The notes: a model not told the origin generated them from the sequence alone. A stretch of 64,000 nucleotides of DNA from an uncultured Alphaproteobacteria bacterium (GCA_902577905.1 CACHAQ010000002.1:19728-83727); one strand, 5' to 3'; shown: positions 23,631 to 52,810, counted from the stretch's first letter. Program-made: numbers and translations.

Positions 23631-23661
23631 AGATTAAATTACAAATTTTATTTTTTCAAGC

Positions 23662-25985: not shown

Positions 25986-26050
25986 AATATATATTGTAAT
26001 GAAGCTTGAATAACTGCATGAAAACAAATAGTCAAAAGTTAATTTAAAAA

Positions 26051-27897: not shown

Positions 27898-27951
27898 AGA
27901 TTAATACTTCTATTAATGAAAAAACCAAAATTAACTATAGATATTTTATAA

Positions 27952-30376: not shown

Positions 30377-30964
30377 CTATCTCTCTAATACTTCGTATCC
30401 AAACTGATCCGCTGTTTCAAGAAGGATCTCCCAAATTGATAAAGCAAAACCTCTTGGTATATATAGACAGTAGCTATTGGAAGTTATTTTAAATAGCTTA
30501 ACACTTACATGATGAATAGCTGTGCTAGCAGAAGATAAATCTGGAAAATTCCTAGCTCTTAAATCAATTGGAAGATGTCTATTTAAAAATAATGATGAAT
30601 TATCTCCTGTAATTTCAATACCTGTGAAAGCATGAGACATGTCTAAAATTGTTGCAATTTGCTCACTTATTTCAATTTCTTTATTAAATAGCCACCATTT
30701 CAAAGGTTCCATTCTCCATAATGATTTATTTTCAAAAATTATCCCTTTATTAAAACTAGGAATATTTTTAATTTTTAGTTCTTTTGATAGTAAATTATTC
30801 ATTTCATCAATTTTGTCAGGCCAACAAGCAATTTGCAAAATTTCTAAACTTTTTAATTCTTTAAATGTTAGGGATTGTTTCTCACTTGATGAATATTTTC
30901 CAACCTTATAAATTGTTTCTAGTGCAGAATGTCTATGCATACATTCGTTCTCCTTTAGGATCAA
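30377..30964 (-). CDS. soxG: Sarcosine oxidase gamma subunit
   Basis: 195 aa, last gene of the soxB-D-A-G order, with size and position typical. The real start may be the ATG at 30940 (MHRHSALE), giving an 8-nt overlap with soxA. Confidence 0.7.
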   Translation of the reverse strand: MILKENECMHRHSALETIYKVGKYSSSEKQSLTFKELKSLEILQIACWPDKIDEMNNLLSKELKIKNIPSFNKGIIFENKSLWRMEPLKWWLFNKEIEISEQIATILDMSHAFTGIEITGDNSSLFLNRHLPIDLRARNFPDLSSASTAIHHVSVKLFKITSNSYCLYIPRGFALSIWEILLETADQFGYEVLER

Positions 30965-33890
30965 TCATATGTGGTGAAACAACTTTTAAATCCATTTGTT
31001 TATTTCTCACAGGATCTGCCCCAACTAAATTGGTATCTTTCCATTTATCTAAACCACCCTTGACAAAACCTAATCCAATCCAATGTCCAAGTTCAGGAGA
31101 ATAAGTAACTGAAGTAATTCTTCCAATACCCTGTCCTTTAATATTATTTTTTTCACAGACAATAGTTCCAGCATTAAAAGTTTCCTTTAAGTTTGTAGGA
31201 AAGAAACCAACTAGAATTTCTCGATCATTATTTTTTAATACTCCTCGTTTTCTCATTGCACTTCCAATATATGATTTTTTTGTAGAAGCCATTTTGGTTA
31301 AACCTGCATCATCAATTGTTACCCTTCCATCAAGCTCAGCGGCTGTTACATGACCTTTTTCAACTCTAAGTGCGCCTAAAGCTTCTAATCCATATAAACA
31401 TCCATCATATTTTTTTGCATTTGCCCAAAGTAGGTCCATCATTGTATTAGCAAAATCTGATTTGACATAAACTTCAAAAGCTAATTCACCTGAAAAACTA
31501 ATTCTTGCAATTCTACAAGGAATATTACCTTTAAGAAATGTTGAAGTAACACCCATAAAAGGTAAGTTATTATTAGTTATAACTAAAGAATCATCGACAC
31601 AATTATTGAGAACTTCTCTAGATTTAGGTCCTGCAACTGAAACGCCTGCCCATTGTTCAGAAACACTAGTCACATTAACATTAAGATCTGTCCATCTAGT
31701 TTGAAGTAATTCTTCTAACCATGACATCACTTTTGCAGCTTCACCTGTAGACGTCGTCATAAAATATTCATTTTCTGCTAATCTCCAAGATGTGCCATCA
31801 TCCATTACAATACCGTCATCACGCAACATAATACCGTATCTAGCTTTTCCAACTTGTAGTTTTGAAAAACCATTCGAATAAATTCTATTTAAAAATTCGG
31901 TAGAGTCTGGTCCTTGAATAGCAATTTTGCCTAATGATGTTACATCACAAATTCCAACTGTTTTTCTTACTGTTGATGCTTCTCTTATATAAGAGTCACT
32001 TAAAGTTTCATTTTCTTTGGGATAATACCAAGGTCTTTGATACAATCCAACTTCAATCATTTTTGCACCATGATCAATATTCCATTGATGCATTGGCGTT
32101 ACTCTTAACGGCCTAAAATGTTTTCCAACATTTCTTCCGCTTAAGGCGCCTATAGATATAGGAGTATAAGGAGGTCTAAAAACAGTAGTTCCAACTTCTG
32201 GAATTTCTTTATTTAAAAGTTCAGCCATTAAAGATAATCCAATGATATTTCCCATTTTTCCTTGATCGTTTGCCATACCTAAAGTTGTGTATCTTTTAAG
32301 ATGCTCTACCGAAATGAAACCTTCTCGATGTGCGAGTCTTACGTCATCTGTTGTTACATCATGTTGATAATCTACAAAACTTTTTGATCTAGATTTTTTA
32401 TATTTTACTTCATAAAGTGGTTGTATGGGATTTTTCCATCCACCAGGTTTTGGGAAAAAATAATTTGTTTTAGAAATACCTAAACGGTTCAATGCATCAG
32501 TAGTTCCTGCTATTCCAGAAGCAATACAATCATTTTTATTCCATAAACCTCTAGAAGAACCTACCATTGTAATATTTTCATTTGTGTCACTTGGTAAAAA
32601 ACAAGCATTGTTATAATCCCATTTAGGCTTTACGCCTCTGTGAGATAACAAATGTACAGCAGGTGACCAGCCACCTGATAATAGAACCTGATCACAATTT
32701 ATAGTTTCAGATTTATTAATAGTTTCACTTTTTGATATATCTAAACTATCAATTTTTTTTGAACCATTAATATTATAAGGCACATACCCTTTTCTAATTT
32801 CAAAACTTTTATTTGTCTCAATTTCAAAATTAGTTCGTGAATCAAGAACAGTTACATTGGCCCCAGCTTCTGATAATTGATGCGCTGTTTCATAAACAGA
32901 GTCATTATTTGTAGCTATCACAATTCTTTTTCCGGTGAGTACACCATATCTATTCAAATAATGCTTTGATGCATTTACGGTCATTACACCAGGAATATCA
33001 TTATTATTAAATGCAATGTGTCTTTCAATTGCTCCAGCACCAACAATTATATGCTTTGCTCTAATGGTCCAAAATCTTTGGCGTGGAATGTTTACATTTG
33101 GTGCTGATATATGGTCTGTTACTCTCTCTAATAAACCAACAACGCAATTATCATATAATCCGAATGCAGTAGTTCTAGTCATTATTTTTATGCCTAGATT
33201 TTCAAGTTGATTTTTAATTTGTGAGTTATCAAAATCATTTTCTGCAAGTTGATTTCCTCCAATAAGACTATCTTGCTCAACTAAAATAACATCTAATTTT
33301 TTTTCTGCTGCCTCTACTGCAGCTGCAACACCAGCAGGTCCTGATCCTACAACAATTAAATCACAAAAATCATGAGCATGCTCATAAGTATCTGGATCAG
33401 GTAACCCAGAAGCACTTCCCATTCCCGCAGCTTTTCTTATAAACTTTTCAAAAAACATCCATATGGCTGTTCCTTTACCCCATTCAAGTGGAGGTATTCC
33501 CATAAAAGTTTTATAATAAAAACCAGCTGCAAAAAACCTGCCTAAGTAATTATTTATTCCAGCTAGATCGAAATTTACATTTGGAAATGCATTTTGACCA
33601 CTTGCTTCCAAACCATTATATAATTCTTGTGTTGTTGCTCTTACATTTGGATCTCTTCTATCTTTTGAACCAATAGTAACTAAAGCACCGGATTCCTCGA
33701 CTCCACTAGAAAATATTCCCCTTGGTCTATGATATTTAAAACTTCTACCAACTATACCAATATTATTTGCAAGTAATGCTGATGCTAGAGTATCTCCTTC
33801 AAAACCTTTGTAATTTTTTTTATCCCACCTAAAGGATAAAATTTTATCTCTATTAATTTTTCCATAGTTATCTATTCTTCTTGTCTTCAT
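30933..33890 (-). CDS. soxA: Sarcosine oxidase alpha subunit
   Basis: 985 aa with an N-terminal 2Fe-2S-like/FAD-NAD region (VVGSGPAGVAAA) and a C-terminal GcvT-like folate-binding domain. It is flanked by delta and gamma subunit genes. Confidence 0.9.
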   Translation of the reverse strand: MKTRRIDNYGKINRDKILSFRWDKKNYKGFEGDTLASALLANNIGIVGRSFKYHRPRGIFSSGVEESGALVTIGSKDRRDPNVRATTQELYNGLEASGQNAFPNVNFDLAGINNYLGRFFAAGFYYKTFMGIPPLEWGKGTAIWMFFEKFIRKAAGMGSASGLPDPDTYEHAHDFCDLIVVGSGPAGVAAAVEAAEKKLDVILVEQDSLIGGNQLAENDFDNSQIKNQLENLGIKIMTRTTAFGLYDNCVVGLLERVTDHISAPNVNIPRQRFWTIRAKHIIVGAGAIERHIAFNNNDIPGVMTVNASKHYLNRYGVLTGKRIVIATNNDSVYETAHQLSEAGANVTVLDSRTNFEIETNKSFEIRKGYVPYNINGSKKIDSLDISKSETINKSETINCDQVLLSGGWSPAVHLLSHRGVKPKWDYNNACFLPSDTNENITMVGSSRGLWNKNDCIASGIAGTTDALNRLGISKTNYFFPKPGGWKNPIQPLYEVKYKKSRSKSFVDYQHDVTTDDVRLAHREGFISVEHLKRYTTLGMANDQGKMGNIIGLSLMAELLNKEIPEVGTTVFRPPYTPISIGALSGRNVGKHFRPLRVTPMHQWNIDHGAKMIEVGLYQRPWYYPKENETLSDSYIREASTVRKTVGICDVTSLGKIAIQGPDSTEFLNRIYSNGFSKLQVGKARYGIMLRDDGIVMDDGTSWRLAENEYFMTTSTGEAAKVMSWLEELLQTRWTDLNVNVTSVSEQWAGVSVAGPKSREVLNNCVDDSLVITNNNLPFMGVTSTFLKGNIPCRIARISFSGELAFEVYVKSDFANTMMDLLWANAKKYDGCLYGLEALGALRVEKGHVTAAELDGRVTIDDAGLTKMASTKKSYIGSAMRKRGVLKNNDREILVGFFPTNLKETFNAGTIVCEKNNIKGQGIGRITSVTYSPELGHWIGLGFVKGGLDKWKDTNLVGADPVRNKQMDLKVVSPHMIDPKGERMYA

Positions 33891-34171
33891 TTATTATTTT
33901 CTACAACCCTCTGTAAATCCGGATGGCATGGTTTGACACTTTTTATTTCATGAGTGACAGTAGAACGTTCAACTACCAACCACATTCTACATCCATTAGA
34001 ATGATGCCATGTTTCAAATTGAAAACCTTTTATATTTTTTCTGAAAAATATAGCTTCAGTCCATTCTTTCTCTGATGCATCTAACGAAGGATAATTGATT
34101 GTTGCATCTCCTCCATAACTAAATTCACTATGATCTCTTTCACCACAATAAGGACAATTGATTCTAATCAT
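33887..34171 (-). CDS. soxD: Sarcosine oxidase delta subunit
   Basis: 94 aa starting MIRINCPYCGERDHSEFSYGGDA, the typical SoxD Zn-ribbon start. It overlaps soxA by 4 nt. Confidence 0.9.
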   Translation of the reverse strand: MIRINCPYCGERDHSEFSYGGDATINYPSLDASEKEWTEAIFFRKNIKGFQFETWHHSNGCRMWLVVERSTVTHEIKSVKPCHPDLQRVVENNK

Positions 34172-35437
34172 TTAACCGTGCAATTTTGGATCAGGTCCTG
34201 CGCCACGTTCATCAATATTAATACCTTTTTCAAATCTTTCTAAATTATGATTTTGCACGTAGTTATGCGGGCTTTCATTTGCAATTAAGTCGGCAAAATA
34301 CCAACCTGATGCAGGACTAGCTTTGAAACCACCATAGTTCCAACCAGCATTTAAATAGAGATTAGATATTGGCGTTTTACAAATAAAAAATGATCCGTCC
34401 ATTGTCATGTCCATAACACCTGCCCAATGACGAAGTAATCTTATTCTTCCAAGTGAAGGAAATATTGCCATGGCCGCTTCGGCAACATCTTGAACCATAG
34501 GAAGGTTTCCTCTTTGAGCATATGATTTATACCAGTCAAGATCACCACCAAAAACCATGCTTCCTTTATCTGACTGCGATATATAGAAATGCGCACCACC
34601 TACACCATAAACAACAACTTGGTCTAGAAGTGGTTTAACAGCCTCAGATACAAATGCTTGTAGTTTATGGGATTCAATTGGCAGGTTGCCTAATTCTGCC
34701 ATTTGCCATAATACTGAAGTATTGCCTGCAACAGCAAATCCTATTTTCTTTCCTTTTATAATTCCTCTTGAAGTTTCAATACTTTCAATATTTCCATTCT
34801 TTCTTGTAAAACCTGTAACTTCACAATTTTGAAGAATGTCTACACCTAATGTATCTGCAGCCCTTGCATAACCCCATGCGACTGCATCGTGTCTTGCATT
34901 GCCTGCTCTTTTTTGAACTGCAGCTCCAAGTATTGGAAATCTTGAATTATGATAATTTAAATGCGGAATATTTTTCTTTAAAGTTTTTAAATCCCAAAGT
35001 TCTGCATCAGTTCCGTGGAGTCGCATAATATTATAAATCCGTGAAACTGAATCTTTAGCACCAGGACTATGAAATAACGAAACATGAGCTCGTTGGCTAA
35101 ACATTACATTATAATTTAATTCGTGACTTAAATTTTCCCATAACTTTAAAGAATGTTCATAAAATTCGTGGTTGCCTGGCATCATATAATTTGATCTTAC
35201 AATAGTTGTATTACGTCCAGCGTTTCCTCCACCAATCCAGCCTTTTTCTAAGACAGCTACATTTTTTATATTATGATTCTTTGCTAAATAATATGCCGTG
35301 GCAAGACCGTGTAAACCACCCCCAATTATTACAACATCATAACTACTTTTTGGTTCTGGATCACGCCATTGTCTAGTCCAATAAGACTGACCATTTAAAC
35401 CGTTTTTAATTACATTCCAGGCATTAAATTTTGTCAT
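34172..35437 (-). CDS. soxB: Sarcosine oxidase beta subunit
   Basis: 421 aa with FAD fold VVIIGGGLHGLATAYYLA. It directly abuts soxD. Confidence 0.9.
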   Translation of the reverse strand: MTKFNAWNVIKNGLNGQSYWTRQWRDPEPKSSYDVVIIGGGLHGLATAYYLAKNHNIKNVAVLEKGWIGGGNAGRNTTIVRSNYMMPGNHEFYEHSLKLWENLSHELNYNVMFSQRAHVSLFHSPGAKDSVSRIYNIMRLHGTDAELWDLKTLKKNIPHLNYHNSRFPILGAAVQKRAGNARHDAVAWGYARAADTLGVDILQNCEVTGFTRKNGNIESIETSRGIIKGKKIGFAVAGNTSVLWQMAELGNLPIESHKLQAFVSEAVKPLLDQVVVYGVGGAHFYISQSDKGSMVFGGDLDWYKSYAQRGNLPMVQDVAEAAMAIFPSLGRIRLLRHWAGVMDMTMDGSFFICKTPISNLYLNAGWNYGGFKASPASGWYFADLIANESPHNYVQNHNLERFEKGINIDERGAGPDPKLHG

Positions 35438-35513
35438 TTGTTTTATTAATTATTAGAATAGTTGATGAAAGTAAAATGAATTAACTTGCCATGCTAGTGT
35501 TATTTAATCACAG

Positions 35514-36539
35514 TTAACTTGATGAATCTGGCCATGTGTCATTTAATCTATAACCTTCTGGAAAAGGATCATCCTTATCGATATATAAACTTTGTTTTCC
35601 AGTAATAAATGCACTACCTGTTATTTTTGGAATAATACAATTTTTGTTATTAATTTTAATTTCCTTTTCAATACTTGCTTTAAATGAAGATCCTATAATA
35701 GACTTTGATATAAATTCTTCATTTATTTGTATTTCATCTTTTTCTTTCATTACTGCTAATCTTGCTGAAGTGCCTGTACCACAGGGTGAACGATCAAGTT
35801 TCCCAGGTCGTATAACAACTGTATTTAAACCTGTAAGTAATGATTGATTATTTTTTTTTAAGGGTTCAATAAATTGACAAAAGGAAAGATAGTCTAATCC
35901 TTTAATAGTAGGATGTTCAAATCCTATAGATGCGTTTGCTTCTTTCAATAATTCTTTAGCAACATTTACAAATTTGTTTGCATTCTTTGGTTCAATTTTA
36001 AGATTAAAATCACTAGCATTACAAATTAAAAAACTGTCACCTCCAAAAGCAGTACTTACTTTAATTGTACCATAATTTTTAGTCTTTAAATCTACATCTA
36101 TTTTATCTGCAAAGCAGGCAAGATTAGTTAAAGTGACACTTTTAACTTTCTTATTTTCACAATCAGCAACAACTTTTATTAAACCACCGGGAGCTTCGAG
36201 TGTAAGCATGGTTTTAGGATATTTCATTTGAACAATATTTTTTTCTAATAAGACTGTCGTTACACAAATTGCATTTGATCCACTCATTGGAGGATTATCT
36301 TCTGGTTCCATGATTACAAATCCAGCATCTGCATTTTTATTTGAAGGTTCTAAAATAATATTAAAATGTTTAAAGACCCCTCCCCGAGGTTCATTTAAAA
36401 AAAAATTTCTCCATTTTTTATCTAAAAAAAGTTTTTTAGAAGCTTCCTCAGGTGAATTAAACTTCAAGCCTTTAATTCCAGTTACGACATCCCCAATTTC
36501 ACCACAGCAATGTGTGTTAAATAATGTGATTTCATCCAT
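35514..36539 (-). CDS. Proline racemase/4-hydroxyproline epimerase superfamily protein with a Ser/Cys catalytic pair
   Basis: 341 aa with EPRGG and DRSPCGTGTSA motifs. The first catalytic-Cys position (MCGH block) reads MSGSN, with Ser86 encoded by AGT at 36282-36284. Confidence 0.8.
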   Translation of the reverse strand: MDEITLFNTHCCGEIGDVVTGIKGLKFNSPEEASKKLFLDKKWRNFFLNEPRGGVFKHFNIILEPSNKNADAGFVIMEPEDNPPMSGSNAICVTTVLLEKNIVQMKYPKTMLTLEAPGGLIKVVADCENKKVKSVTLTNLACFADKIDVDLKTKNYGTIKVSTAFGGDSFLICNASDFNLKIEPKNANKFVNVAKELLKEANASIGFEHPTIKGLDYLSFCQFIEPLKKNNQSLLTGLNTVVIRPGKLDRSPCGTGTSARLAVMKEKDEIQINEEFISKSIIGSSFKASIEKEIKINNKNCIIPKITGSAFITGKQSLYIDKDDPFPEGYRLNDTWPDSSS

Positions 36540-37689
36540 GTGGAATTATTAGGTCATCAATATTTTTAGAATGATGTGTAATTTGTTCGTATCCATCTTT
36601 TGTTATAATAAAACTATCACCAACTTGTGATCTAAAATTATTTGCACTTGCCCCGCCATCAACGGCAAATACCATTCCAGGCTCCAGTACTGTTTTATTA
36701 CCAACTACTAATTGTGGTTCCTCTAAAAAGCTAAAGCCTGTACCTCTTCCACATCGAAATGTAGGATAAGGGTATCCCTCAGACTGTATAGTATCTGCAT
36801 AAGCAGCATGAACTTCTTCAGCTGTTACTCCAGGGCCAAGAATTTCAAGAGCAGCTTTTTGAGATTTAACCGCAGTCTCAAAAGCTTTTATTTGTTCATC
36901 GGATTGAATTTCTTCAACCCAAAATATTCTGTCAAAACCTAATTTAAACCTATGGAAATTTGTAGAACCACAATAACATACGAATACGGGATCACCTTTT
37001 TTTATAATTTTGGTTGAAGCGCGATGGTGAGTTTTAGGTAAATCATGACCCGATGTCATAACAGGTAAAAAGTGAATATTTGGAGACATATTGATATTAT
37101 CAGGATAAAATTCTTTTAATAGATCTGCAGCTTTTCTTGTTCCAGCTTGTGATTGTGCAAGTGCAACCTCATACTCAGGAACATTATGGCCAATTGTTTT
37201 TTTTGCCGCCTCCATCATAGCCATACCAACTTCGCCAGCATGACGAGCTATATTCAATTCATGATTAGATTTAATCATTCTTATATTATCTATTAATTTG
37301 GTTAAATCCCCAGGATGGTCTTGAAGTAATTCGTCTAAATAACTCTTAACCATTGGGTTAATTTTAAATTTTTCAATAAAAATATTTTTATGTTGATTGG
37401 TGATTTGAGGTAATAATTCTCTCCATTCATTTCCAATACCATCATTCCATGTTTCAACCATATCTACAGGACAAGATTCTGGTACTAATAAAACATCAAG
37501 AAGAGGTGTAATTAAATAAGTTTTATGATCATTTGAAACAACTAATAATGTTGGACGATAAAAATCCATATGAAGGAAGTCATGATATCCTGTGAAATAA
37601 TATATCGAGTCATCATCAGTTATAATTGAGAGATCAATATTGTTCTCAGACATTTTTTTCTTTAGTTTATTTAAGTTTTCAGAAAACAT
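36532..37689 (-). CDS. M24-fold hydrolase with creatinase/prolidase N-terminal domain (creatinase- or ectoine-hydrolase-like)
   Basis: 385 aa with creatinase_N plus pita-bread fold. By eye, several canonical M24 metal ligands are substituted (VCYCG, CGRGTG, AVDGG). Confidence 0.7.
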   Translation of the reverse strand: MFSENLNKLKKKMSENNIDLSIITDDDSIYYFTGYHDFLHMDFYRPTLLVVSNDHKTYLITPLLDVLLVPESCPVDMVETWNDGIGNEWRELLPQITNQHKNIFIEKFKINPMVKSYLDELLQDHPGDLTKLIDNIRMIKSNHELNIARHAGEVGMAMMEAAKKTIGHNVPEYEVALAQSQAGTRKAADLLKEFYPDNINMSPNIHFLPVMTSGHDLPKTHHRASTKIIKKGDPVFVCYCGSTNFHRFKLGFDRIFWVEEIQSDEQIKAFETAVKSQKAALEILGPGVTAEEVHAAYADTIQSEGYPYPTFRCGRGTGFSFLEEPQLVVGNKTVLEPGMVFAVDGGASANNFRSQVGDSFIITKDGYEQITHHSKNIDDLIIPHG

Positions 37690-38844
37690 TTATTTTAATT
37701 GTTGTTCTACCAATTCAGTCCAATATGAAGAACCTATGACTAATAATTCGTCATTAAAATCATAATTATCAGCATGTAAAGGTCTGGAATGCTGCTCTGA
37801 TGTTCCGTTACCCATTAAAACAAAGCAGCCAGGTTTTTCATTTGCCATAACAGAAAAATCTTCTGAGAATAAACGTGGTTCTATATTACCATTACATTTA
37901 TCACTACCAAGTAAAGAAACTGCAGCTTTTGTTGCAGACTCAGTTTGATTTTTTGAATTAAAAGTTACAGGACAGGCTGTTTCATATTTAACACTACCAT
38001 TAACACCATGTGCATTGCAAATCCCTTCGACAATTTGTAACATTTTTGAAGCAATTTTTTCATTTGTTTCTTTCGATAAAGCTCTCGCGTCACCAGTCAT
38101 TTTTACCATACCTGGCAGAACATTTTTTTTACCATCGGTTATAAATTCGGTAATAGACACTATACCATTGTCTGCTGGATTTAATTTCCTAGACACTATC
38201 GATTGAAGTGCAACAGCTATTTGAGAACCAACAGTTATTGCATCTACCCCCATATGAGGTAACGCAGCATGCCCACCTTTAGTTTTTATTTCAATTTCAA
38301 ATAAATTTTCGCTGGCTGTAATAGCTCCATTTCTTGTACCAAATGTTCCAATTTCCATGTTAGGAATATTGTGCATAGCGTAAACTTCATCAATGTTAAA
38401 TTTATCAAACAATCCTTCATCTATCATTGTTCTTGCACCGAATGTATTCTCTTCATCAGGTTGAAAAATAAAATATACCGTACCGTTAAAGTTACCTTTT
38501 TCTGATAAATATTTTGCTGCACCTAATAACATTGTTGTGTGACCGTCATGTCCACATGCATGCATTCTGTTATCAAACTTGGACTTATAACTAAACTTAT
38601 TAGTTTCATGTATAGGAAGAGCATCCATGTCAGCTCTTATACCAATTGATTTTGAACTATTTCCTTTTTTTAAAATTCCAACTACTCCAGTTCTGGCAAT
38701 ACCAGAATGAACTTCTATTCCAAACTCTTTTAGAAGTGTTGATACTTTTTCTGCAGCATACTCTTCTTCAAAACTTAATTGTGGGTGCATATGAAGATCA
38801 TGACGCCATTCTACTAATTGGTTATGTAATGACTGAGTTTTCAT
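37690..38844 (-). CDS. M20-family N-acyl-L-amino-acid amidohydrolase (HipO/Ama-like)
   Basis: 384 aa with MHACGHDGH and FQPDEE motifs of the M20D subfamily. Confidence 0.8.
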   Translation of the reverse strand: MKTQSLHNQLVEWRHDLHMHPQLSFEEEYAAEKVSTLLKEFGIEVHSGIARTGVVGILKKGNSSKSIGIRADMDALPIHETNKFSYKSKFDNRMHACGHDGHTTMLLGAAKYLSEKGNFNGTVYFIFQPDEENTFGARTMIDEGLFDKFNIDEVYAMHNIPNMEIGTFGTRNGAITASENLFEIEIKTKGGHAALPHMGVDAITVGSQIAVALQSIVSRKLNPADNGIVSITEFITDGKKNVLPGMVKMTGDARALSKETNEKIASKMLQIVEGICNAHGVNGSVKYETACPVTFNSKNQTESATKAAVSLLGSDKCNGNIEPRLFSEDFSVMANEKPGCFVLMGNGTSEQHSRPLHADNYDFNDELLVIGSSYWTELVEQQLK

Positions 38845-38847
38845 AAC

Positions 38848-40290
38848 CTACATATTATTAAATTCTTTAATCTTATTGTCTAGAGAAAGCATATATTCAT
38901 AATGTGAATTCCAAAATTTTTGATCTTTTCTTTTTTCAAATTCTTCAAGACTTACACCTTGTTGCTCTACCCAAGTAAAGTACCCTAAATTAAATATTCT
39001 TTTCTTATCCATGTAAGAAAGTTCTAGCATATTATCAGTAGATATTCCTGATAAGTGTTTTCCAAATAGTTCAGCACAAACTATTTCATCATAATTATTT
39101 TTAAAATCAGCAATGGTCTTGTTCAACTCTGACATGTATAAATCTGCACCATCTGTAGCGACCGTTATAATTGCGTCATCACTAGTTAAATCCATATATT
39201 TAGCTAGTTTTATTGATGCCAATATATTTGCTATTGCTGAAAAGCCAAATTCAGGAAGTCGTGAAACAAAATCAGGTTCAAAATTTTTTTTCTCAATTAA
39301 AAACTTTTTTCCTATTTCAGTATTAAAAATCATATTTAGATTATTGGTAGCTTCATCAGAAACATCTACGACAAAATCGGTATTCATTACATTATGAATA
39401 AGTGGAACATGTTTGTCACCAATTCCTTGTATATTATGTTCACCATAACCTCCATGAAGCAAAGTTGGGCACTCCAAAGCTTCAACAACTGCAATCTTCG
39501 TCTGTAATTTATCTTTAAGATAATCTCCTGCTGCTAGAGTACCACTTGATCCTGAAGCACTTACGTAAAACCTAGGAGTTAAATTACTGTTACCTTTAAC
39601 TTTAAGAAATGATTTTTCAAAAGATGGACCCGTTATAGAACGATGAATACTGTAATTATAATACTCATCAAATTGATTTATGATATCATTTTGATTATCT
39701 TTTTTTAATTCATTACAAGCATCGTAAATTTCTTTAACATTACTTTCTGTGCCTTTTGTCTTTATGATATTTTTTTTATCTTTAACCCAATCATTCAACC
39801 ATTCAAATCTCTCATTACTCATTCCTTCAGGAAGTATTGCAATACTATTAAGGCCCATTATCCGAGATATTGCTACTCCGCCCCTACAATAATTTCCTGT
39901 AGAAGGCCAAACTGCTTTATGTTTTTCATAATCAAAAGTGCCATTTAATATTCTTGGAAGCAAACAACCATAAGCTGCTAAAACTTTATGAGCTGTTATT
40001 AAGGGAAAATATCGTCCCATATTTACAATTATCTTTGCCTTAACACCTGTGAATTCTGTTGGTAGCACAATATATTCAGGTTCATTTCCAAAACCTGATT
40101 GATCTCTTTTATTAAACCAATGAACTCTAAAGAGGTTAAGAGGATTGATATCATTATTATTTATTTTTTTTAGAGAATTTTTAATATCATCATTAATAAT
40201 TTGAGGGTCTTGAAGTTCACTTATACTTGGTAAAACAACTCCTTTTGATTTGAAGTAATCAGACGTTTTTTTTATTATTGCTTGACTCAT
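38848..40290 (-). CDS. Fold-type-II (Trp-synthase-beta-like) PLP-dependent enzyme with a ~90-aa N-terminal extension
   Basis: 480 aa with a candidate PLP-Lys segment ITAHKVLAAY and a STGNYCRGGV block. It is much longer than cysteine synthase or threonine dehydratase paralogues. Confidence 0.6.
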   Translation of the reverse strand: MSQAIIKKTSDYFKSKGVVLPSISELQDPQIINDDIKNSLKKINNNDINPLNLFRVHWFNKRDQSGFGNEPEYIVLPTEFTGVKAKIIVNMGRYFPLITAHKVLAAYGCLLPRILNGTFDYEKHKAVWPSTGNYCRGGVAISRIMGLNSIAILPEGMSNERFEWLNDWVKDKKNIIKTKGTESNVKEIYDACNELKKDNQNDIINQFDEYYNYSIHRSITGPSFEKSFLKVKGNSNLTPRFYVSASGSSGTLAAGDYLKDKLQTKIAVVEALECPTLLHGGYGEHNIQGIGDKHVPLIHNVMNTDFVVDVSDEATNNLNMIFNTEIGKKFLIEKKNFEPDFVSRLPEFGFSAIANILASIKLAKYMDLTSDDAIITVATDGADLYMSELNKTIADFKNNYDEIVCAELFGKHLSGISTDNMLELSYMDKKRIFNLGYFTWVEQQGVSLEEFEKRKDQKFWNSHYEYMLSLDNKIKEFNNM

Positions 40291-40293
40291 AAA

Positions 40294-41268
40294 TTAAATA
40301 TTGATGCCTAAATTATTTGTTTTACAAAGATTATAAGCAAATCTTGCTATTGCAGTATCTTGTACGCCAGTTCCTGTCAAATCACATATTGTTATATCTT
40401 CTTTATTTTTTCTTCCTAAGCTTGGATCGTTAATAATATCGCCAAGTTCATTAAATTTTTCTTTAGAAGAAATTATATTTTGTTTTAAAGCATGATGTAA
40501 TTCACCCAAAACACTTGTTTGTAATTGAATGTCAGGTACATATTGATCGCAATGTTTTAACATCTTAGGATCTAATTCGTTTTTTTGTTCTGCATCTGAC
40601 CCCATTGCTGTTATGTGAGTTCCTTTAATTATCCAATCAAATTCCAAAAGCGGTTTTTTACTAGGAGTCGTTGTAACGATTATTTCTGATAAGCTTGCCA
40701 ACTCCTTGCAAGAAGAAGCTACATGCAAATCTAAATCTAAATCTTTAAAACCTTCGATAAATTGGTTTGCTTTTGTCTCATTTCTTGTCCAGACTATTAT
40801 TTTTTTTATTTTTCTAACTAACATTATTGCTTGAAGTTGTAATTTGGCTTGAATTCCAGCTCCAATAATACCAACAGAATTAGCATTTTGATTTGATAAA
40901 TATTTTGTAGCTATTGCACCTGCTATAGCTGTTCTAGTATCTGTAAGATAACCTTCATCCAACAGAACAGATTTTACAACACCAGTCTTTGAATCTAATA
41001 AAACCATCAGTCCATTACTAGATGGCAGACCAAGTTTTGGATTATCGAAAAAACCTGAAGCGATTTTTATTGCAAAACTATCAAGACCCTCAACGTATGC
41101 AGCTTTAACATCAGATTCACCATGATATTTTTCAATATCAATTCTCATTATAGGTGGCATCATTACCAATCCTTTTGATAAACTTGTAAAAGCCTCCTCT
41201 ATTATTGGTATGAGATTTTTATTCAAATCTACATGTTGAATAATATCATTTTTATTAAGGATGAGCAT
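40294..41268 (-). CDS. Ornithine cyclodeaminase/mu-crystallin family protein (EutC-like)
   Basis: 324 aa with NAD fold GIIGAGIQA. It overlaps the upstream gene by 14 nt. Confidence 0.8.
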   Translation of the reverse strand: MLILNKNDIIQHVDLNKNLIPIIEEAFTSLSKGLVMMPPIMRIDIEKYHGESDVKAAYVEGLDSFAIKIASGFFDNPKLGLPSSNGLMVLLDSKTGVVKSVLLDEGYLTDTRTAIAGAIATKYLSNQNANSVGIIGAGIQAKLQLQAIMLVRKIKKIIVWTRNETKANQFIEGFKDLDLDLHVASSCKELASLSEIIVTTTPSKKPLLEFDWIIKGTHITAMGSDAEQKNELDPKMLKHCDQYVPDIQLQTSVLGELHHALKQNIISSKEKFNELGDIINDPSLGRKNKEDITICDLTGTGVQDTAIARFAYNLCKTNNLGINI

Positions 41269-42217
41269 GGCTTAAAACTTTGTTAAACAATTCCGAGTCA
41301 ATATTTCCACCACAAATTAAACAGATTATATTTTTTCCTAAGTGCGATGTTAGTTTTTCTTTAACAACCATTACACTTGTTGCTGCAGCACCTTCAGATA
41401 CAATTTTGTGTTCTAAAAAATTTATTCTAATTCCTTCAGCTATTTTTTCTTCACTTACTAAAACAAAGTCATCAACGTATTGTTGTACAATATTAAATGT
41501 AAATTTATTATCTAAGCCAATACTACCACCTAGACAATCAGCTAAAGTTTCAGTTTCCTCTACATCAACAGGTCTGCCTTTTTTTAGACTTTCAAACATT
41601 GAAGGACCTCTTTCCATAGATACAGCAATAATTTTTGTGTCAGGTTTTTGAAGTTTAATAGCTTGTGCTATTCCAGATATAAGACCGCCACCAGATGTTG
41701 GTATAATTACAGTATCAACTTCAGGAAATTCAGTAAGCATTTCAAGCCCAACTGTACCTTGGCCTATAATAATGTCTTCATCATCAAAGGGGTGAATTAA
41801 TGGGATATTTTTTTCTTTCGCAATTTGTTTAGCATGTAAATCAGCTTCATCACTATTCTTTCCAATAATTTCTACTTTTGCTCCTAATTTTTCAATAGCC
41901 TCTTTTCTATATTCTGGAACCATTGAAGACATGTATATTGTTGATTGAATGCCCAATACCTTTGATGCATAAGCAACGCCTTTGCCATGATTGCCTGTAG
42001 AAACTGCGATGACTCCTTTGTTCTTGTCATCTTCACTTAAAGAAAGTAGCTTATTAACAGCGCCTCTTAACTTAAATGAACCAGTGATTTGAAAATTTTC
42101 TAACTTTAGTTTTACTGTATTACTTTTTGATAAGAAATTAGAATTAATTAATGGTGTATAATTAACATAAGGTAAAATTTTCTTATGTGCTTCTTGTATT
42201 TGTTGAAGTGTAATCAA
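41255..42217 (-). CDS. Threonine/serine dehydratase-like PLP enzyme (EutB-like)
   Basis: 320 aa with PLP-Lys motif GSFKLRGA and STGNHGKG. Confidence 0.8.
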   Translation of the reverse strand: MITLQQIQEAHKKILPYVNYTPLINSNFLSKSNTVKLKLENFQITGSFKLRGAVNKLLSLSEDDKNKGVIAVSTGNHGKGVAYASKVLGIQSTIYMSSMVPEYRKEAIEKLGAKVEIIGKNSDEADLHAKQIAKEKNIPLIHPFDDEDIIIGQGTVGLEMLTEFPEVDTVIIPTSGGGLISGIAQAIKLQKPDTKIIAVSMERGPSMFESLKKGRPVDVEETETLADCLGGSIGLDNKFTFNIVQQYVDDFVLVSEEKIAEGIRINFLEHKIVSEGAAATSVMVVKEKLTSHLGKNIICLICGGNIDSELFNKVLSHAHP

Positions 42218-42229
42218 TTTAATCCCTAT

Positions 42230-42985
42230 TTAATGTAATTTAAATAGGTTACCATAACCATCAATTTTTTGATTAATATTAGATAATCTTAATGAATCCC
42301 AAATAATAGCTTGATTACTTGAAATGATATCTATGCTTAATTTTGACTCTAATTCTTCGATAATATCAATTACTTTTAATGCAGTACAAGAAACAAAAAT
42401 ACTATCAACATCTGTTAAATCAATTGAGGAAATTGTTCGCATTAAACTATCATGAGTAACTTTGGCAATTTCGGAGTCATAATTTAAATTAAACGAACTA
42501 AATGATTTAATTTCAAATCCACTATCAATTAAATATTCATAAACTTTAACATTAACGTCTTTTGGATAAGGGGTAAGAACAGCAATTTTTTTATGATTTA
42601 ATAATTTAAGTGCTTTTACCGCTGCTGTAATAGGTGTCGTAATTAAAGCATCAGGTTTAGCTTTAAAAATTTCAGATCTTATTTTTTTTTCACCAATTTC
42701 AATAGTACCCGAAGTACATCCATACGCTACAACTTGTATTTTTTCATTAGGTAATATTTGGTTTGCTGTTTCTGAAAGATTATCAGCCATCCTCATATAA
42801 TTTTCATGAGTTAGAGGATTTAAAAAAGGTATCCTATTAAAAAATAGATCAACTGGTAAATTATGACAAATTTTTCTAAAATCCTGCTCTATTGTAAAAT
42901 CAGTTGATAATGTGATTATACCAATTCTAGAAAAGTTTGTATTATGTAAATTGGCTTTAACATTATTTTGATTAAAACTATCCAT
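42230..42985 (-). CDS. Asp/Glu/hydantoin racemase superfamily protein (maleate-isomerase/EutA-like)
   Basis: 251 aa with two conserved Cys blocks, YGCTSGT and FVSCTAL. Confidence 0.75.
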   Translation of the reverse strand: MDSFNQNNVKANLHNTNFSRIGIITLSTDFTIEQDFRKICHNLPVDLFFNRIPFLNPLTHENYMRMADNLSETANQILPNEKIQVVAYGCTSGTIEIGEKKIRSEIFKAKPDALITTPITAAVKALKLLNHKKIAVLTPYPKDVNVKVYEYLIDSGFEIKSFSSFNLNYDSEIAKVTHDSLMRTISSIDLTDVDSIFVSCTALKVIDIIEELESKLSIDIISSNQAIIWDSLRLSNINQKIDGYGNLFKLH

Positions 42986-44088
42986 TACTGATTTGGAAAA
43001 TAATCCTCACACTCACCTTCTCTATGAACATCAGTAGTGGCACAATGTAAACTACCACCAAACGCATAAACGTCTCTAAAAGGAACTGGAATAACTTCCA
43101 ATCCAAAACTTTCCATTTGTTTAATCATTTTTTCTTCCGTTGCCTCGACGCATATAGTTTTAGGATCAATTATCAAAACGTTCATAGATAACCAGATTGA
43201 TGAATAACACATAGGTGGTGGACTATTATGAATGGAGGGTGCTGCCTCATGAATTTCCCATTTATTATCATCAAAAATTTTTCTTTGCTCTGATGATATT
43301 TTTCTATTCGGATTAATGATTATTACTCCTGGTTTAATAGGAGTAAAACATGCATCAATGTGAGTTGGAATTAAATCACCTGGTAAATTGATTTGATGAA
43401 CGCGATGATTTGGATAATGTCTTCTTAACCAATCTAAACCGCTTAAATTTGATGTGAAATTATTATGATAAAAAAGATCTTTTCCAAAGCGTAAAATTTC
43501 TGCTGCATCAAAAAGTGGTTCTTTTTCTGTCAATATCATGTCTCTATTTTCGATTTTTTTGTATCGTTCTTCTTCCGTTAAGCCTTCAGGAAGATAATTG
43601 GACTTATAAGATTGATTTGTTAATCTTGGTTTAGGTGCCGACTCCCATCTCATATTTTTATCTTCTGAATAATATTTTTCAAGTAGTGGTCTATAAGCAA
43701 GGTACTCAAACCATCTACATCTGTAAGACATGGGCGCCTCTAGCATTTCATTTCCTACAGTAAGAATAACATCTCTGGGAGGCATACAACCAAACATACC
43801 ATCATTAGACCAATCGGGTGTCTCAATACTCTGAGAAAAGTCAATAGGTGTTGGTCTATCAACTTTTATATTTAAGGAATTTAAAATTTTAACAAAGTTT
43901 TCTAATTGTATGTTTGCTTTATCAATTGACTCTTTTGAACGTGGTCCGTGAGATCCTGCCATACCACTATCTTTACTAATTTTTGGTTCAAGTGCTGGTT
44001 CCATAGGAGGTATGTTGGCATTTTCAACTGCTCCAACTATAACATGCTTTAATGGATCCCATTCATTCCAAGAATTAACTATTGTCAT
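42985..44088 (-). CDS. Amidinotransferase (AGAT/StrB1-like, guanidino-group-modifying enzyme superfamily)
   Basis: 367 aa. The N-terminus NSWNEWDPLKHVIVG matches the AGAT SYNEWDPLEEVIVG block. The C-terminal catalytic Cys block is GGSLHCATTDVHR (AGAT: GGGFHCWTCDVRR). Confidence 0.75.
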   Translation of the reverse strand: MTIVNSWNEWDPLKHVIVGAVENANIPPMEPALEPKISKDSGMAGSHGPRSKESIDKANIQLENFVKILNSLNIKVDRPTPIDFSQSIETPDWSNDGMFGCMPPRDVILTVGNEMLEAPMSYRCRWFEYLAYRPLLEKYYSEDKNMRWESAPKPRLTNQSYKSNYLPEGLTEEERYKKIENRDMILTEKEPLFDAAEILRFGKDLFYHNNFTSNLSGLDWLRRHYPNHRVHQINLPGDLIPTHIDACFTPIKPGVIIINPNRKISSEQRKIFDDNKWEIHEAAPSIHNSPPPMCYSSIWLSMNVLIIDPKTICVEATEEKMIKQMESFGLEVIPVPFRDVYAFGGSLHCATTDVHREGECEDYFPNQ

Positions 44089-44131
44089 TATATTTTCCTT
44101 AATTTAAAACTATGCATTATAATTAAAACTT

Positions 44132-45583
44132 ATGGAATTAAATAACAAATCACTCTTTAAACAAAAATGTTTTATAAATGGGGAATGGGTTGGCAGTTCT
44201 TCAGGTGAAACTCTTGAGGTAAATAATCCAGCATCTCTTGAAATTATTGGCAACGTCCCAAAATGCTCAGTTTCAGAAACCAAAAAAGCTGTAGATGATG
44301 CAAATACTGCTTTCCAAAGTTGGAAAGAAACTACTGCTAAAGAAAGATCAATTATTCTTAAAAAATGGGGTGAACTCATCACAGAAAATGCAGATGATTT
44401 AGCTAAAATAATGACTATTGAGCAAGGTAAACCTCTGGCTGAAGCAAAGGGCGAAATTCTAATGGGTGCTTCATATATTGAGTTCTATGCTGAAGAAGCA
44501 AAAAGAGTGTATGGTGATATAGTTCCTGATCCAAGACCTGGAAAAAGAATTGTAATAATTAAACAACCTGTTGGTGTTGTTGGAGCAATAACTCCATGGA
44601 ATTTTCCAAATTCAATGATAACAAGAAAATGTGCAGCCGCTTTAGCAGTTGGTTGTACTACTGTTGTTAAACCAGCAAGCCAAACACCCTATTCAGCATT
44701 AGCTGTAGCAGTGCTCGCTAAAGAAGCTGGTTTTCCAGATGGTGTATTTAATGTAATAACTGGATCGGCAAGTGAAATTGGTAAAGAACTAACAAGTAAC
44801 CCTATTGTTAGAAAAATTTCTTTTACTGGATCTACGGAGGTTGGAAAAATACTTTTAGAGCAAAGTGCCTCAACAGTAAAAAAAGTTTCTATGGAACTTG
44901 GTGGTCACGCACCATTTATAGTTTTTGATGATGCAGATATGGATGAAGCTGTTGCAGGCGCACTGCAAAGTAAATTTAGAAATAGTGGCCAAACATGTAT
45001 TTGTTCAAATAGAATATTTGTGCATGAAAATATTTATGATGAATTCCTGGAAAAATTTACAAATGAAGTCAATAAAATCACAGTAGGCAATGGACTTGAA
45101 GATGGAATTACATCTGGTCCTTTAATTGATCAATCCTCTCTAGAAAAAGTAATTGATCATGTACAAGACGCAGTTAATACAGGAGCTAAGATAGCGATTG
45201 GTGGAGATGTGCATTCGCTTGGTGGGAATTTCTATCAACCAACTGTTCTCTCTAATGTATCTACAAAAGCAAAAATAACTTTTGAAGAAACATTTGGACC
45301 TGTTGCTCCTCTGTATAAATTTTCCAGTGATGATGAAGTGATTAAAATGGCTAATGATACTCCTTATGGATTAGCTTCATATTTCTATTCAAGAGACATA
45401 GGAAGAATTTGGAGAGTTGCCGAAGCACTTGAATATGGAATTGTATCTATTAACAATGGACTACCTACAATTGCAGAAGTTCCTTTTGGAGGTGTAAAAG
45501 AATCAGGAATGGGGAGAGAAGGTTCTCGATATGGCCTTGATGACTATTTAACTATAAAATATATTTCAATGGGTGGCATTTAA
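44132..45583 (+). CDS. gabD: Succinate-semialdehyde dehydrogenase
   Basis: 483 aa, collinear with E. coli GabD as I recall it (INGEW, EQGKPLAEAKGE, ITPWNFP, LELGG, GQTCIC, EETFGP, LEYGIV). Confidence 0.88.
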   Translation: MELNNKSLFKQKCFINGEWVGSSSGETLEVNNPASLEIIGNVPKCSVSETKKAVDDANTAFQSWKETTAKERSIILKKWGELITENADDLAKIMTIEQGKPLAEAKGEILMGASYIEFYAEEAKRVYGDIVPDPRPGKRIVIIKQPVGVVGAITPWNFPNSMITRKCAAALAVGCTTVVKPASQTPYSALAVAVLAKEAGFPDGVFNVITGSASEIGKELTSNPIVRKISFTGSTEVGKILLEQSASTVKKVSMELGGHAPFIVFDDADMDEAVAGALQSKFRNSGQTCICSNRIFVHENIYDEFLEKFTNEVNKITVGNGLEDGITSGPLIDQSSLEKVIDHVQDAVNTGAKIAIGGDVHSLGGNFYQPTVLSNVSTKAKITFEETFGPVAPLYKFSSDDEVIKMANDTPYGLASYFYSRDIGRIWRVAEALEYGIVSINNGLPTIAEVPFGGVKESGMGREGSRYGLDDYLTIKYISMGGI

Positions 45584-50742: not shown

Positions 50743-50829
50743 TGGTGCGGCTGAGAAGACTTGAACTTCCACAGGATAAATCCCACAGCGACCTCAACGC
50801 TGCGCGTATACCAATTCCGCCACAGCCGC
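50743..50829 (-). tRNA. tRNA-Leu (anticodon GAG), class II with long variable arm and encoded CCA
   Basis: Hand-folded from the sequence GCGGCTGTGGCGGAATTGGTATACGCGCAGCGTTGAGGTCGCTGTGGGATTTATCCTGTGGAAGTTCAAGTCTTCTCAGCCGCACCA. The 7-bp acceptor stem is GCGGCTG/CAGCCGC. The anticodon stem is CAGCG/CGCTG with loop TTGAGGT. The variable arm is 15 nt. The T arm is GGAAG-TTCAAGT-CTTCT. Confidence 0.9.
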
Positions 50830-52435: not shown

Positions 52436-52436
52436 A

Positions 52437-52805: not shown

Positions 52806-52810
52806 TGTAT

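Follow-up and report, generated by a model that had tools for sequence, protein, structure and literature searches.

The roles of EutABC, DoeA and EutE in the eut/doe clusters of (hydroxy)ectoine catabolism have been described (PMC5924519, PMC13188858), and Boas Lichty et al. 2026 (PMC13188858) report that the putative ectoine clusters of Gram-positive bacteria possess M20 «abgB» genes as well as second homologues of eutD. SAR11 with two paralogous soxBDAG operons was reported by Sun et al. 2011 (PMC3160333), their function being left unresolved. The locus analyzed here joins genes of both kinds. It is an array of twelve minus-strand genes, with a divergent aldehyde dehydrogenase (ALDH) gene at its head, in a stretch of 64,000 nucleotides (nt) from an uncultured Alphaproteobacteria bacterium (GCA_902577905.1, CACHAQ010000002.1:19728-83727; hereafter the window, i.e., the whole stretch, positions being counted from its first letter). 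In gene order the array encodes an L-arginine:glycine amidinotransferase (AGAT)-type protein, EutA-, EutB- and EutC-like proteins, a pyridoxal-phosphate (PLP) enzyme of a family without name (PLP480), an M20 amidohydrolase, an M24 hydrolase, a proline-racemase-superfamily (ProR-like) protein and SoxBDAG. The window has a G+C content of about 30% and minimal spacers, both typical of SAR11/Pelagibacterales, and SAR11 is the most abundant heterotroph of the surface ocean.

The array is best read, with moderate confidence, as a compacted, modular, operon-like catabolic unit for nitrogen-rich compatible solutes, which would be vertically conserved in Pelagibacterales. Two or three joined modules describe it better than one linear pathway. 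An earlier reading of the window, made from the sequence alone (the sequence-only reading), had given several nitrogen-rich osmolyte routes in one unit as its fallback; this is supported. Outside SAR11 the genes form separable modules. The same reading knew of no description of such a gene set, and a literature search likewise found no publication describing it as a pathway, nor any on ectoine catabolism or its catabolic genes in SAR11. No relevant literature was found under SAR11 locus tags or DoeA2/DoeB2 either; it can be mentioned that SAR11_1068 is an orphan binding protein in HTCC1062. A pangenome study of 2025 lists the deamination genes of the coastal genera without linking them (PMC12636525).

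Conservation and organization of the array

The same gene order was found in more than 15 independent loci, with 60-99% protein identity and including the divergent ALDH gene and the MgtE/BioY/ROK flank, in single-cell genomes, metagenome-assembled genomes (MAGs) and metagenome contigs. Synteny, which the sequence-only reading had proposed as a check, is thus conserved in many Pelagibacterales-like genomes. The arrangement is far beyond chance. The AGAT gene is the head of the array in all full-length SAR11 loci, and the ALDH gene is adjacent and divergent in every SAR11 locus except one. That locus (L091) has other flanks: the block from AGAT to soxB-soxD is intact save the ProR-like gene, the locus ends in soxA, the ALDH gene is absent, and the upstream genes are unrelated (an alcohol dehydrogenase of the iron type (Fe-ADH), lactamase-fold protein and ParA). 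It follows that the block moves as a whole and can do without the ProR-like gene.

The junction ahead of soxB is the variable one. The spacer of 76 nt in the window is 25-47 nt long in L001 and L003, and genes for a DUF4396 membrane protein and a DsbA-like thioredoxin stand between the ProR-like gene and soxB in MarineAlpha5_Bin9 (L007 14808-15897, i.e., L094 1788-2877). The array can thus be interrupted at this spacer. It must be added that the genes for the EutC-like protein of the ornithine cyclodeaminase (OCD) family, M24, the ProR-like protein, SoxA, SoxG and a DUF3726 protein are among those split or truncated in L088, L090 and L097, which could reflect assembly frameshifts or real pseudogenes.

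In the map of open reading frames (ORFs) the twelve genes and their spacings agree to the base with those given by the sequence-only reading, and its gene-family calls hold upon comparison with Pfam, NCBIfam and the Protein Data Bank (PDB) (Table 1). From AGAT to soxG the successive junctions are -1, +12, -14, +3, +3, 0, -8, +76, 0, -4 and -32 nt; the gap between the first array gene and the ALDH gene is 43 nt. The Pfam scan of window ORFs covered 5.3-51.5 kb, i.e., the part between the ORFs below 5.3 kb and the ribosomal-protein stretch beyond 51.5 kb, and «scanned ORFs» refers to this range. Gene calls in GC-rich loci were used only where tblastn or profile matches confirmed them.

A consensus scan of the array and its spacer gave fewer promoter-like sites than shuffled sequence (64 vs. 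85 expected). Terminator-like sites in the array and the 76-nt spacer show no excess (6 vs. 6.4 expected). The Rfam scan of the whole window returned a single tRNA (50746-50829), and the 76-nt spacer contains neither an Rfam family nor a terminator. Because these scans gave no signal above background, the operon structure is drawn from spacing and conservation, and the transcription units are putative, as deduced from spacing.

Table 1. Features of the array and its borders in the window.
Feature	Position	Strand	Basis of assignment
Gene 1, AGAT-family amidinotransferase, 367 aa	42985-44088	-	263 bits to human AGAT
Gene 2, EutA-like, Asp/Glu-racemase/arylmalonate-decarboxylase family, 251 aa	42230-42985	-	TIGR02990 best
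Gene 3, EutB-like fold-type-II PLP dehydratase, 320 aa	41255-42217	-	NF005680 best
Gene 4, EutC-like, ornithine-cyclodeaminase/mu-crystallin family, 324 aa	40294-41268	-	NF006141 (PRK08291)
Gene 5, PLP480, CysK/CBS-like PLP enzyme, family without name, 480 aa	38848-40290	-	weak CysK matches
Gene 6, M20 N-acyl-amino-acid amidohydrolase, candidate ADABA deacetylase, 384 aa	37690-38844	-	TIGR01891
Gene 7, M24 «pita-bread» hydrolase without metal ligands, 385 aa	36532-37689	-	Creatinase_N + Peptidase_M24
Gene 8, ProR-like protein (proline-racemase superfamily), Ser/Cys pair, 341 aa	35514-36539	-	Pfam Pro_racemase
Spacer before soxB, 76 nt	35438-35513		sequence read directly
Gene 9, soxB	34172-35437	-	TIGR01373
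Gene 10, soxD	33887-34171	-	Pfam SoxD domain
Gene 11, soxA	30933-33890	-	TIGR01372
Gene 12, soxG	30377-30964	-	weak model match
Decayed doeA/eutD 3' remnant, 22 codons	30299-30366	-	alignment to L097
ALDH, succinate-semialdehyde dehydrogenase (SSADH) type, candidate Ssd/DoeC, 483 aa	44132-45583	+	TIGR01780
aa, amino acids; ADABA, N-alpha-acetyl-2,4-diaminobutyrate; CBS, cystathionine beta-synthase.

Ectoine-type genes

The EutABC signature, from which the sequence-only reading had derived its ectoine proposal, is supported. The EutA-like protein has TIGR02990 (ectoine_eutA) as top NCBIfam match (212 bits, below the cut-off of 318); Pfam Amdase scores 81 bits, and the closest PDB entries are maleate isomerase and arylmalonate decarboxylase. 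The top NCBIfam match of the EutB-like protein is NF005680 (EutB), with 379 bits for a cut-off of 413, and its top plasmid matches (about 46% identity) are all annotated «hydroxyectoine utilization dehydratase EutB». The EutC-like protein passes the cut-off of NF006141 (PRK08291, cyclodeaminase; 450 bits vs. 408) and remains below that of TIGR02992 (eutC; 409 bits vs. 472), the LhpI-type reductase model giving 69 bits. The ALDH lies above the SSADH cut-off (TIGR01780, 729 bits vs. 646).

No aspartoacylase-family EutE/DoeB gene is present at the array, which has the M20 gene. This M20 protein exceeds the cut-off of TIGR01891 (amidohydrolase; 321 bits vs. 154) and its closest PDB entry is YxeP. 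The proposal that M20 stands in place of DoeB was right as to the family; it can be added that this M20 is a candidate for the kind which NCBI models as DoeB2, an alternative ADABA deacetylase. NF038260 (DoeB2) matches it from end to end, although below the cut-off (316 bits vs. 550), generic amidohydrolase and CpsA models scoring equally.

The gene for ectoine hydrolase (DoeA/EutD) is not in the window, where only a 68-nt remnant was found. In sister strains a doeA orthologue (M24 family, 390-391 amino acids) stands directly after soxG (L001, L085-L090 and L094-L098). It gives 391 bits to the structure of Halomonas elongata DoeA (6TWK) and 470-475 bits to TIGR02993, i.e., far above any other model, yet below the cut-off of 613; one public source names it «Ectoine hydrolase». 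The DNA of L097 and that of the window are 97% identical on either side of a clean 1,116-bp deletion in the window, which corresponds to L097 9993-11108 and comprises nearly all of doeA. In the remnant 58 of the 68 nt are identical to L097 (85% vs. 97% in the flanks); it translates as LRVTETVYKLITNVISDLHIVN followed by a stop, and its L097 counterpart as VRVTETGYELLTNVPRDLHIVN followed by a stop.

A near-identical single-cell genome (L008) has a similar-sized gap (about 80 nt) after soxG and no doeA. Between the window and L008, both without doeA, dN/dS is 0.03-0.23 in 11 of the 12 array genes and no frameshift occurs. The array is therefore maintained without DoeA. With doeA lost and the rest under purifying selection, it follows that the array must serve another purpose than the DoeA-dependent opening of the ectoine ring; ADABA-type intermediates, hydroxylated derivatives or the substrate of the second module described below are candidate substrates in a strain without doeA.

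In the sister strains a GcvT-like aminomethyltransferase gene often comes after doeA, or after soxG if doeA is absent (e.g., L094 9179-10303, L085 16298-17410 and L003 20038-21159). Its product gives 410 bits to the model of the dimethylsulfoniopropionate (DMSP) demethylase DmdA, which is exactly the cut-off. This gene is absent from the window.

The M24 hydrolase and SoxBDAG

The in-array M24 protein has a Creatinase_N and a Peptidase_M24 domain (Pfam), and all its matches are weak: 70 bits to prolidase, 60 to creatinase and 37-57 to DoeA (57 to TIGR02993). Towards the creatinase structures, it gives 60 bits to 1CHM (Pseudomonas putida) and 34 bits to 7YTO, and prolidases score no worse. C238, G251, R315, D344 and G357 stand in the positions of the five canonical metal ligands, a pattern which is kept across the subfamily. 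An RCG motif is common to M24 and DoeA; the identity between M24 and the DoeA orthologue of the sister strains is 23%, and both coexist in these strains.

The two descriptions of this protein in the sequence-only reading stand in part. As DoeA/EutD-like, it is indeed an M24 member with Creatinase_N; it is not close to DoeA, the true orthologue being the one after soxG in sister strains. As a creatinase-fold protein, it does have the Creatinase_N domain, but no close creatinase relative: within the comparisons made, only general traits are common to both (this domain and the loss of metal ligands). Two assignments were discarded or ranked low: (i) a prolidase is rejected, all five metal ligands being replaced; (ii) an ectoine hydrolase is ranked low, given the 23% identity to the DoeA orthologue and the coexistence of both. 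It is probable that the SAR11 «creatinase» and «X-Pro dipeptidase» clusters of Red Sea metagenomics (PMC3686209) are the two M24 genes seen here.

Four sites outside the array (L092, L016, L099 and L100) have an orthologue of the in-array M24 (54-58% identity) placed directly upstream of EutA-like and soxBDAG genes. They are an AT-rich contig from a metagenome (L092), an alphaproteobacterial MAG rich in GC (L016) and plasmids of Roseovarius pelagicus and Aminobacter. L092 has M24, EutA-like and Sox genes and nothing else from the array. In L016 and both plasmids a LysR gene precedes this module, and AsnC, EhuB-like/EhuC/EhuD/EhuA and M20 (49-50% identity) genes are nearby. In the Roseovarius, Aminobacter, L016 and L027 clusters of Ehu type, M20 orthologues with 48-50% identity adjoin a diaminopropionate (DAP) ammonia-lyase gene, which is carried by both plasmids. 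Where the sequence reaches past soxG (L016 and the Roseovarius plasmid), a Rieske oxygenase gene comes after it. In Paraburkholderia and Sinorhizobium, M24 relatives of lower identity (about 40%) likewise adjoin Asp/Glu-racemase-family genes.

The Sox proteins have the trait of heterotetrameric sarcosine oxidase (TSOX): beta, delta, alpha and gamma subunits are encoded in this order and alpha is of the folate-binding type, with GCV_T and SO_alpha_A3 domains. SoxB (TIGR01373, 606 bits vs. 529) and SoxA (TIGR01372, 1169 bits vs. 1164) exceed the cut-offs. SoxD (104 bits vs. 116) and SoxG (51 bits vs. 144, a weak match) are below them, the Pfam SoxD domain being present in the former. SoxB gives 409 bits to the TSOX beta subunit of Stenotrophomonas maltophilia, of which the structure is solved. 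Its identity is 75-76% to the M24-linked SoxB of Roseovarius and Aminobacter and 75-83% over the M24-linked clade as a whole, vs. 56-60% to most plasmid SoxB, whether near hom-like genes or elsewhere.

AGAT-type, PLP480 and ProR-like proteins

The AGAT-type protein matches human L-arginine:glycine amidinotransferase (1JDW) over its full length (263 bits). Upon alignment to 1JDW/1JDX the triad C407, H303 and D254 is kept, as are D170, D305, R322 and S354/355; I and T stand at the lid positions N300 and M302. No Pfam or NCBIfam model matches it at E<=0.001. Its nearest plasmid-borne homologue (Photobacterium, 49% identity) has no array genes nearby.

PLP480 matches CysK models weakly (74 bits) and conserves the lysine of an «AHK» motif. 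Its AlphaFold model (predicted local distance difference test, pLDDT, 77) shows a CysK/CBS fold with extra N- and C-terminal helices; the top matches are cysteine synthases (template modelling (TM) score 0.75, 20-25% identity). The fold search of the PDB returned generic cysteine-synthase/CBS neighbours and no functional lead. A genome scan built on a six-sequence alignment retrieved at least 595 genome loci of the PLP480 family in many phyla, which outside SAR11 are almost never near other array genes. Outside SAR11 the neighbour of PLP480 is usually a second fold-II PLP enzyme, and a selenium-dependent xanthine-dehydrogenase-type enzyme, SsnA and YgeW (a knotted carbamoyltransferase) are often near as well; such neighbours occur in Acidimicrobiia, Chloroflexia, Thermoanaerobaculia and others. 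Examples of PLP480 neighbourhoods within L009-L084 are L041 7071-9938, L021 8656-9963, L063 8844-10064 and L079 4100-5236. These surroundings suggest that PLP480 has a role in a purine- or diaminopropionate-related route in the non-SAR11 phyla.

In Hoeflea, Actibacterium and Rhodobacteraceae, AsnC and an Ehu-like ABC transporter precede PLP480 and a BisC-type S/N-oxide reductase follows it. The latter genes belong to the cytoplasmic BisC family (L011 11433-13766, L027 11400-13736 and L024 11567-13858). In Hoeflea, DAP ammonia-lyase and a metal-containing M24 follow PLP480 as well. The BisC-type reductase hints that the solute of the Ehu-like transporter may carry an N-oxide or a sulfoxide.

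The ProR-like protein was called an atypical proline-racemase homologue in the sequence-only reading. The superfamily is clear (Pfam Pro_racemase, 328 bits) and the active-site motifs MSGSN and DRSPCGTG form a Ser/Cys pair, not Cys/Cys; the closest structures (4K8L, 1TM0 and 4K7G_B) are of the Ser/Thr kind. Its top NCBIfam match is NF047722 (dehydratase of trans-3-hydroxy-L-proline), with 417 bits for a cut-off of 550. A member of the superfamily with a Ser/Cys pair (Ser93/Cys255) is a 4-hydroxyproline epimerase (PMC4113996).

Neighbouring genes

Three genes converge on soxG (window 26911-30302): an M19 membrane dipeptidase (26911-27897, minus strand), a 554-amino-acid protein with no Pfam match (27952-29616, plus strand) and a DUF3726 protein of 238 amino acids (29586-30302, plus strand). 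In both size and function they agree with homC, homB and homA from the homarine operon, which was described recently and whose product, N-methylglutamate, needs a Sox-like dehydrogenase (PMC13236597). These homarine-type neighbours raise the possibility that Sox handles N-methylglutamate. A Shinella plasmid carries homologues of the M19 dipeptidase and of the 554-amino-acid protein in company with an ALDH and a LysR gene. The array is flanked in relatives by DmdA-like and homarine-type genes, as would suit a neighbourhood for osmolyte catabolism.

Further away, window 17317-26027 contains genes for a glutamine-synthetase-like protein (weak match to gamma-glutamylputrescine synthetase), an ALDH, a DAO-type FAD oxidoreductase and a PotABCD-type ABC transporter with a TOBE domain. 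This block looks like a Puu-type polyamine/amine utilisation block, and the PotABCD-type transporter and DAO genes also follow the array in L094, L097 and L098. Window 5333-15926 is a sugar/sugar-acid block, with GH20 hexosaminidase, galactokinase-like GHMP kinase, TauD-family dioxygenase, Gfo/Idh/MocA oxidoreductases, short-chain dehydrogenases, a protein of the altronate/galactarate-dehydratase family and Fe-ADH; it is unusual for SAR11 and fits the «coastal genera» of PMC12636525. Upstream of the array are glutathione synthetase and GCS2-type glutamate-cysteine ligase genes (47067-49345), then a long string of ribosomal-protein-sized genes (51521-64000).

Interpretation of the array

The modular reading would distribute the array as follows. 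Module 1 would be a variant (hydroxy)ectoine route comprising EutA/B/C, M20 in the role of EutE/DoeB, the Ssd/DoeC-type ALDH and, in sister strains, DoeA. In this route: (i) DoeA would open the ring of ectoine or hydroxyectoine to give (hydroxy)-N-alpha-acetyl-2,4-diaminobutyrate (DABA being the deacetylated form); (ii) M20 would remove the acetate; (iii) EutB as a beta-hydroxy-amino-acid dehydratase and EutC as an imine reductase would remove the hydroxyl, according to the logic of BhcB/BhcD; (iv) the aldehyde obtained after deamination would be converted to aspartate by the ALDH, the DABA-deaminating step having no assigned enzyme here. In Module 2 the metal-ligand-less M24 would feed the distinct SoxBDAG clade, elsewhere with the EutA-like protein between them. 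M24 is predicted to cleave an amidine, guanidine or amide C-N bond, leading to an N-methyl amino acid, possibly sarcosine, which Sox would demethylate, the carbon passing to methylene-tetrahydrofolate.

For the accessory members one can only speculate. The ProR-like protein might act on 5-hydroxyectoine, a cyclic beta-hydroxy imino acid like 3-hydroxyproline. The AGAT-type protein might pair with the OCD-like EutC (arginine to ornithine to proline), or it might amidinate sarcosine, which would explain the field creatine labelled from glycine betaine (PMC9321204).

Several points speak against the modular reading: (i) EutA, EutB and M20 as DoeB2 each score under the equivalog cut-off; (ii) no DABA aminotransferase (Atf/DoeD), no Ehu/Ueh/Tea transporter and no EnuR/AsnC regulator were found among the scanned ORFs, the sole ABC system of which is of PotABCD type (21424-26027), and the sequence-only reading had already noticed that these components and DoeB/EutE are missing here; (iii) the window strain is without DoeA and its own use of ectoine is doubtful; (iv) the Sox substrate could be sarcosine, N-methylglutamate or another; (v) AGAT, PLP480 and ProR-like proteins are left as unexplained accessory members, without a step in the model; (vi) the genes are tightly co-linear, and Rhodobacterales and Hyphomicrobiales also have Eut-like, M20, M24 and Sox genes close together, which could point to one pathway for a single solute.

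Concerning this last point, all twelve enzymes might constitute one undescribed linear pathway for a single abundant marine solute, either ectoine-like or guanidino plus N-methyl. M24 and M20 would open and deacylate the solute, EutA/B/C, PLP480 and the ProR-like protein would process the carbon skeleton, AGAT would rescue an amidino group by transfer to ornithine, and Sox would remove the N-methyl group. Such a pathway would account for the preservation of the block with different flanks in L091 and for the fact that counterparts of five of the eight non-sox genes (EutA-like, beta-eliminating PLP lyase, PLP480, M20 and M24) gather again around SoxBDAG and a transporter of Ehu type (L016, L027, Roseovarius and Aminobacter); the distinct SoxB clade, with 75-76% identity across orders vs. 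56-60% to ordinary SoxB, points in the same direction. However, modules occur alone: L092 carries M24, EutA-like and Sox only, and the neighbours of PLP480 are usually quite different. L091 is devoid of the ProR-like gene, doeA varies among near-identical strains, unrelated genes occur between the ProR-like gene and soxB in L007/L094, and no candidate compound fits all the chemistries. A single pathway is considered rather unlikely.

Tentatively, and at a similarly low level of confidence, M24, EutA-like and SoxBDAG may form by themselves a so far undescribed route that acts on an N-methylated amidine or guanidine solute abundant in seawater, and to this route SAR11 would add the AGAT-type protein and PLP480. 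On that reading the distinct Sox clade would not be an ordinary sarcosine oxidase. The AGAT-type protein might then be the enzyme missing between sarcosine and creatine in the ocean; alternatively, it might rescue amidino groups by transferring them to ornithine, so that cells without urease lose no urea.

A creatine/guanidinoacetate route is improbable. M24, as an amidinohydrolase of creatinase type, would split creatine into sarcosine and urea, glycine would be formed from sarcosine by Sox, and EutC would turn ornithine into proline; the interconversion of arginine/ornithine with glycine/guanidinoacetate, or with sarcosine/creatine, would fall to AGAT. The intact triad and arginine-binding residues of AGAT, the creatinase N-domain of M24, its loss of metal ligands as in creatinase, and its constant adjacency to Sox agree with this route. 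So do the field isotope data, in which sarcosine gives creatine by an unknown enzyme (PMC9321204), and the SAR11 «creatinase» genes that are core to subgroup Ia (PMC3686209), but this older annotation may refer to the DoeA orthologue. M24 has only 60 bits to P. putida creatinase, which is no better than prolidases; a racemase/decarboxylase partner such as EutA-like makes no sense for achiral creatine; and AGAT is absent from the minimal M24-Sox modules.

The absence of any metabolic link, i.e., unrelated housekeeping genes packed head-to-tail by streamlining, is still less probable. SAR11 spacers are tiny throughout the window, promoter and terminator signals neither divide the genes nor link them, and unrelated genes can enter the array (L007/L094). 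Mere packing does not account, however, for the intact block at a different genomic location (L091) nor for the co-localisation of same-family subsets in GC-rich, non-streamlined Rhodobacterales and Hyphomicrobiales, and the families are catabolic, not housekeeping.

Least probable of all is the salvage of hydroxyproline or peptides, in which M24 prolidase and M20 dipeptidase would release (hydroxy)proline, the ProR-like protein would act on trans-3-hydroxy-L-proline by dehydration or on 4-hydroxyproline by epimerisation, the OCD-like protein would form proline from pyrroline-2-carboxylate by reduction and EutB would deaminate threonine/serine: the ProR-like protein does have NF047722 as top match and its closest structures in the 3-hydroxyproline dehydratase group, OCD-family pyrroline-2-carboxylate reductases are known partners of such dehydratases (PMC3958920, PMC4113996) and the traits of SAR11 coastal genera include hydroxyproline, proline, ornithine and threonine deamination genes (PMC12636525), but M24 lost the five metal ligands that prolidases need, the OCD-like protein has 69 bits to the LhpI type vs. 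409-450 to EutC/PRK08291, the ProR-like gene is dispensable (L091), and DoeA, AGAT and Sox are left unexplained.

Ectoine is a leading phytoplankton exometabolite, among the largest single ones (PMC13012070), and many SAR11 lineages hold a DoeA orthologue embedded in the Eut/Sox array. The presence or absence of the ring-opening gene between 97%-identical strains is a ready-made natural experiment. The conserved M24-EutA-like-Sox module is common to SAR11 and the cultivable Roseovarius and Aminobacter, where genetic dissection is possible. Moreover, the locus offers candidate enzymes for: (i) the real role of EutABC; (ii) the replacement of EutE and Atf; (iii) the marine conversion of sarcosine to creatine (PMC9321204).

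Comparison with known systems

The array resembles the eut/doe (hydroxy)ectoine clusters by its EutA-, EutB- and EutC-like genes in the alphaproteobacterial A-B-C order, by its SSADH-type ALDH, by the DoeA/EutD orthologue held by sister strains in the same array, and by its organization as a long co-directional unit of about 13.5 kb, as the operon of R. pomeroyi. It differs from them in three respects: (i) M20 is present, not an aspartoacylase-type EutE/DoeB; (ii) Atf/DoeD, a linked Ehu/Ueh/Tea transporter and EnuR/AsnC are lacking; (iii) soxBDAG, the AGAT-type, CysK-like PLP and ProR-family genes and a second, metal-less M24 are embedded in it, doeA being deleted here.

The putative ectoine clusters of Gram-positive bacteria and Thermodesulfobacteriota (PMC13188858) and the NCBIfam DoeA2/DoeB2 families are similar in that an M20 of abgB/DoeB2 type replaces EutE, two M24 (eutD-like) paralogues are present and the gene content is variable. 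In contrast to the array, these clusters keep atf and a dedicated transporter and have neither sox nor AGAT. The array M20 and M24 are far under the DoeB2 and DoeA2 cut-offs (316 vs. 550 and 55 vs. 575 bits, respectively). In the beta-hydroxyaspartate cycle, BhcB and BhcD are likewise a threonine-dehydratase-like PLP dehydratase followed by an OCD-family imine reductase, which remove the beta-hydroxyl of an amino acid in two steps. However, the BhcB and BhcD models are weak on the array proteins (211 and 183 bits vs. cut-offs of 550 and 500), and the array has no aldolase or aminotransferase partner.

SoxBDAG of Corynebacterium and Stenotrophomonas, and the look-alike MgdABCD, have the same four subunits in the order B-D-A-G and an alpha subunit with a folate-binding GcvT domain. 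The array Sox differs from them as a separate clade which travels with an M24 hydrolase and an EutA-like protein. The closest counterparts of this association are the plasmid clusters of Roseovarius pelagicus (NZ_CP106737) and Aminobacter sp. SR38 (pSR3), with the same M24 subfamily (54-56% identity), EutA-like, SoxBDAG (SoxB 75-76%) and M20 (49-50%) proteins. Unlike the array, they are without AGAT, EutC, ProR-like and DoeA genes, and they bring regulators of their own (AsnC, LysR and GntR) together with an EhuB-like/EhuC/EhuD/EhuA transporter, DAP ammonia-lyase, Rieske oxygenase and an oxidoreductase resembling dimethylglycine dehydrogenase (DMGDH).

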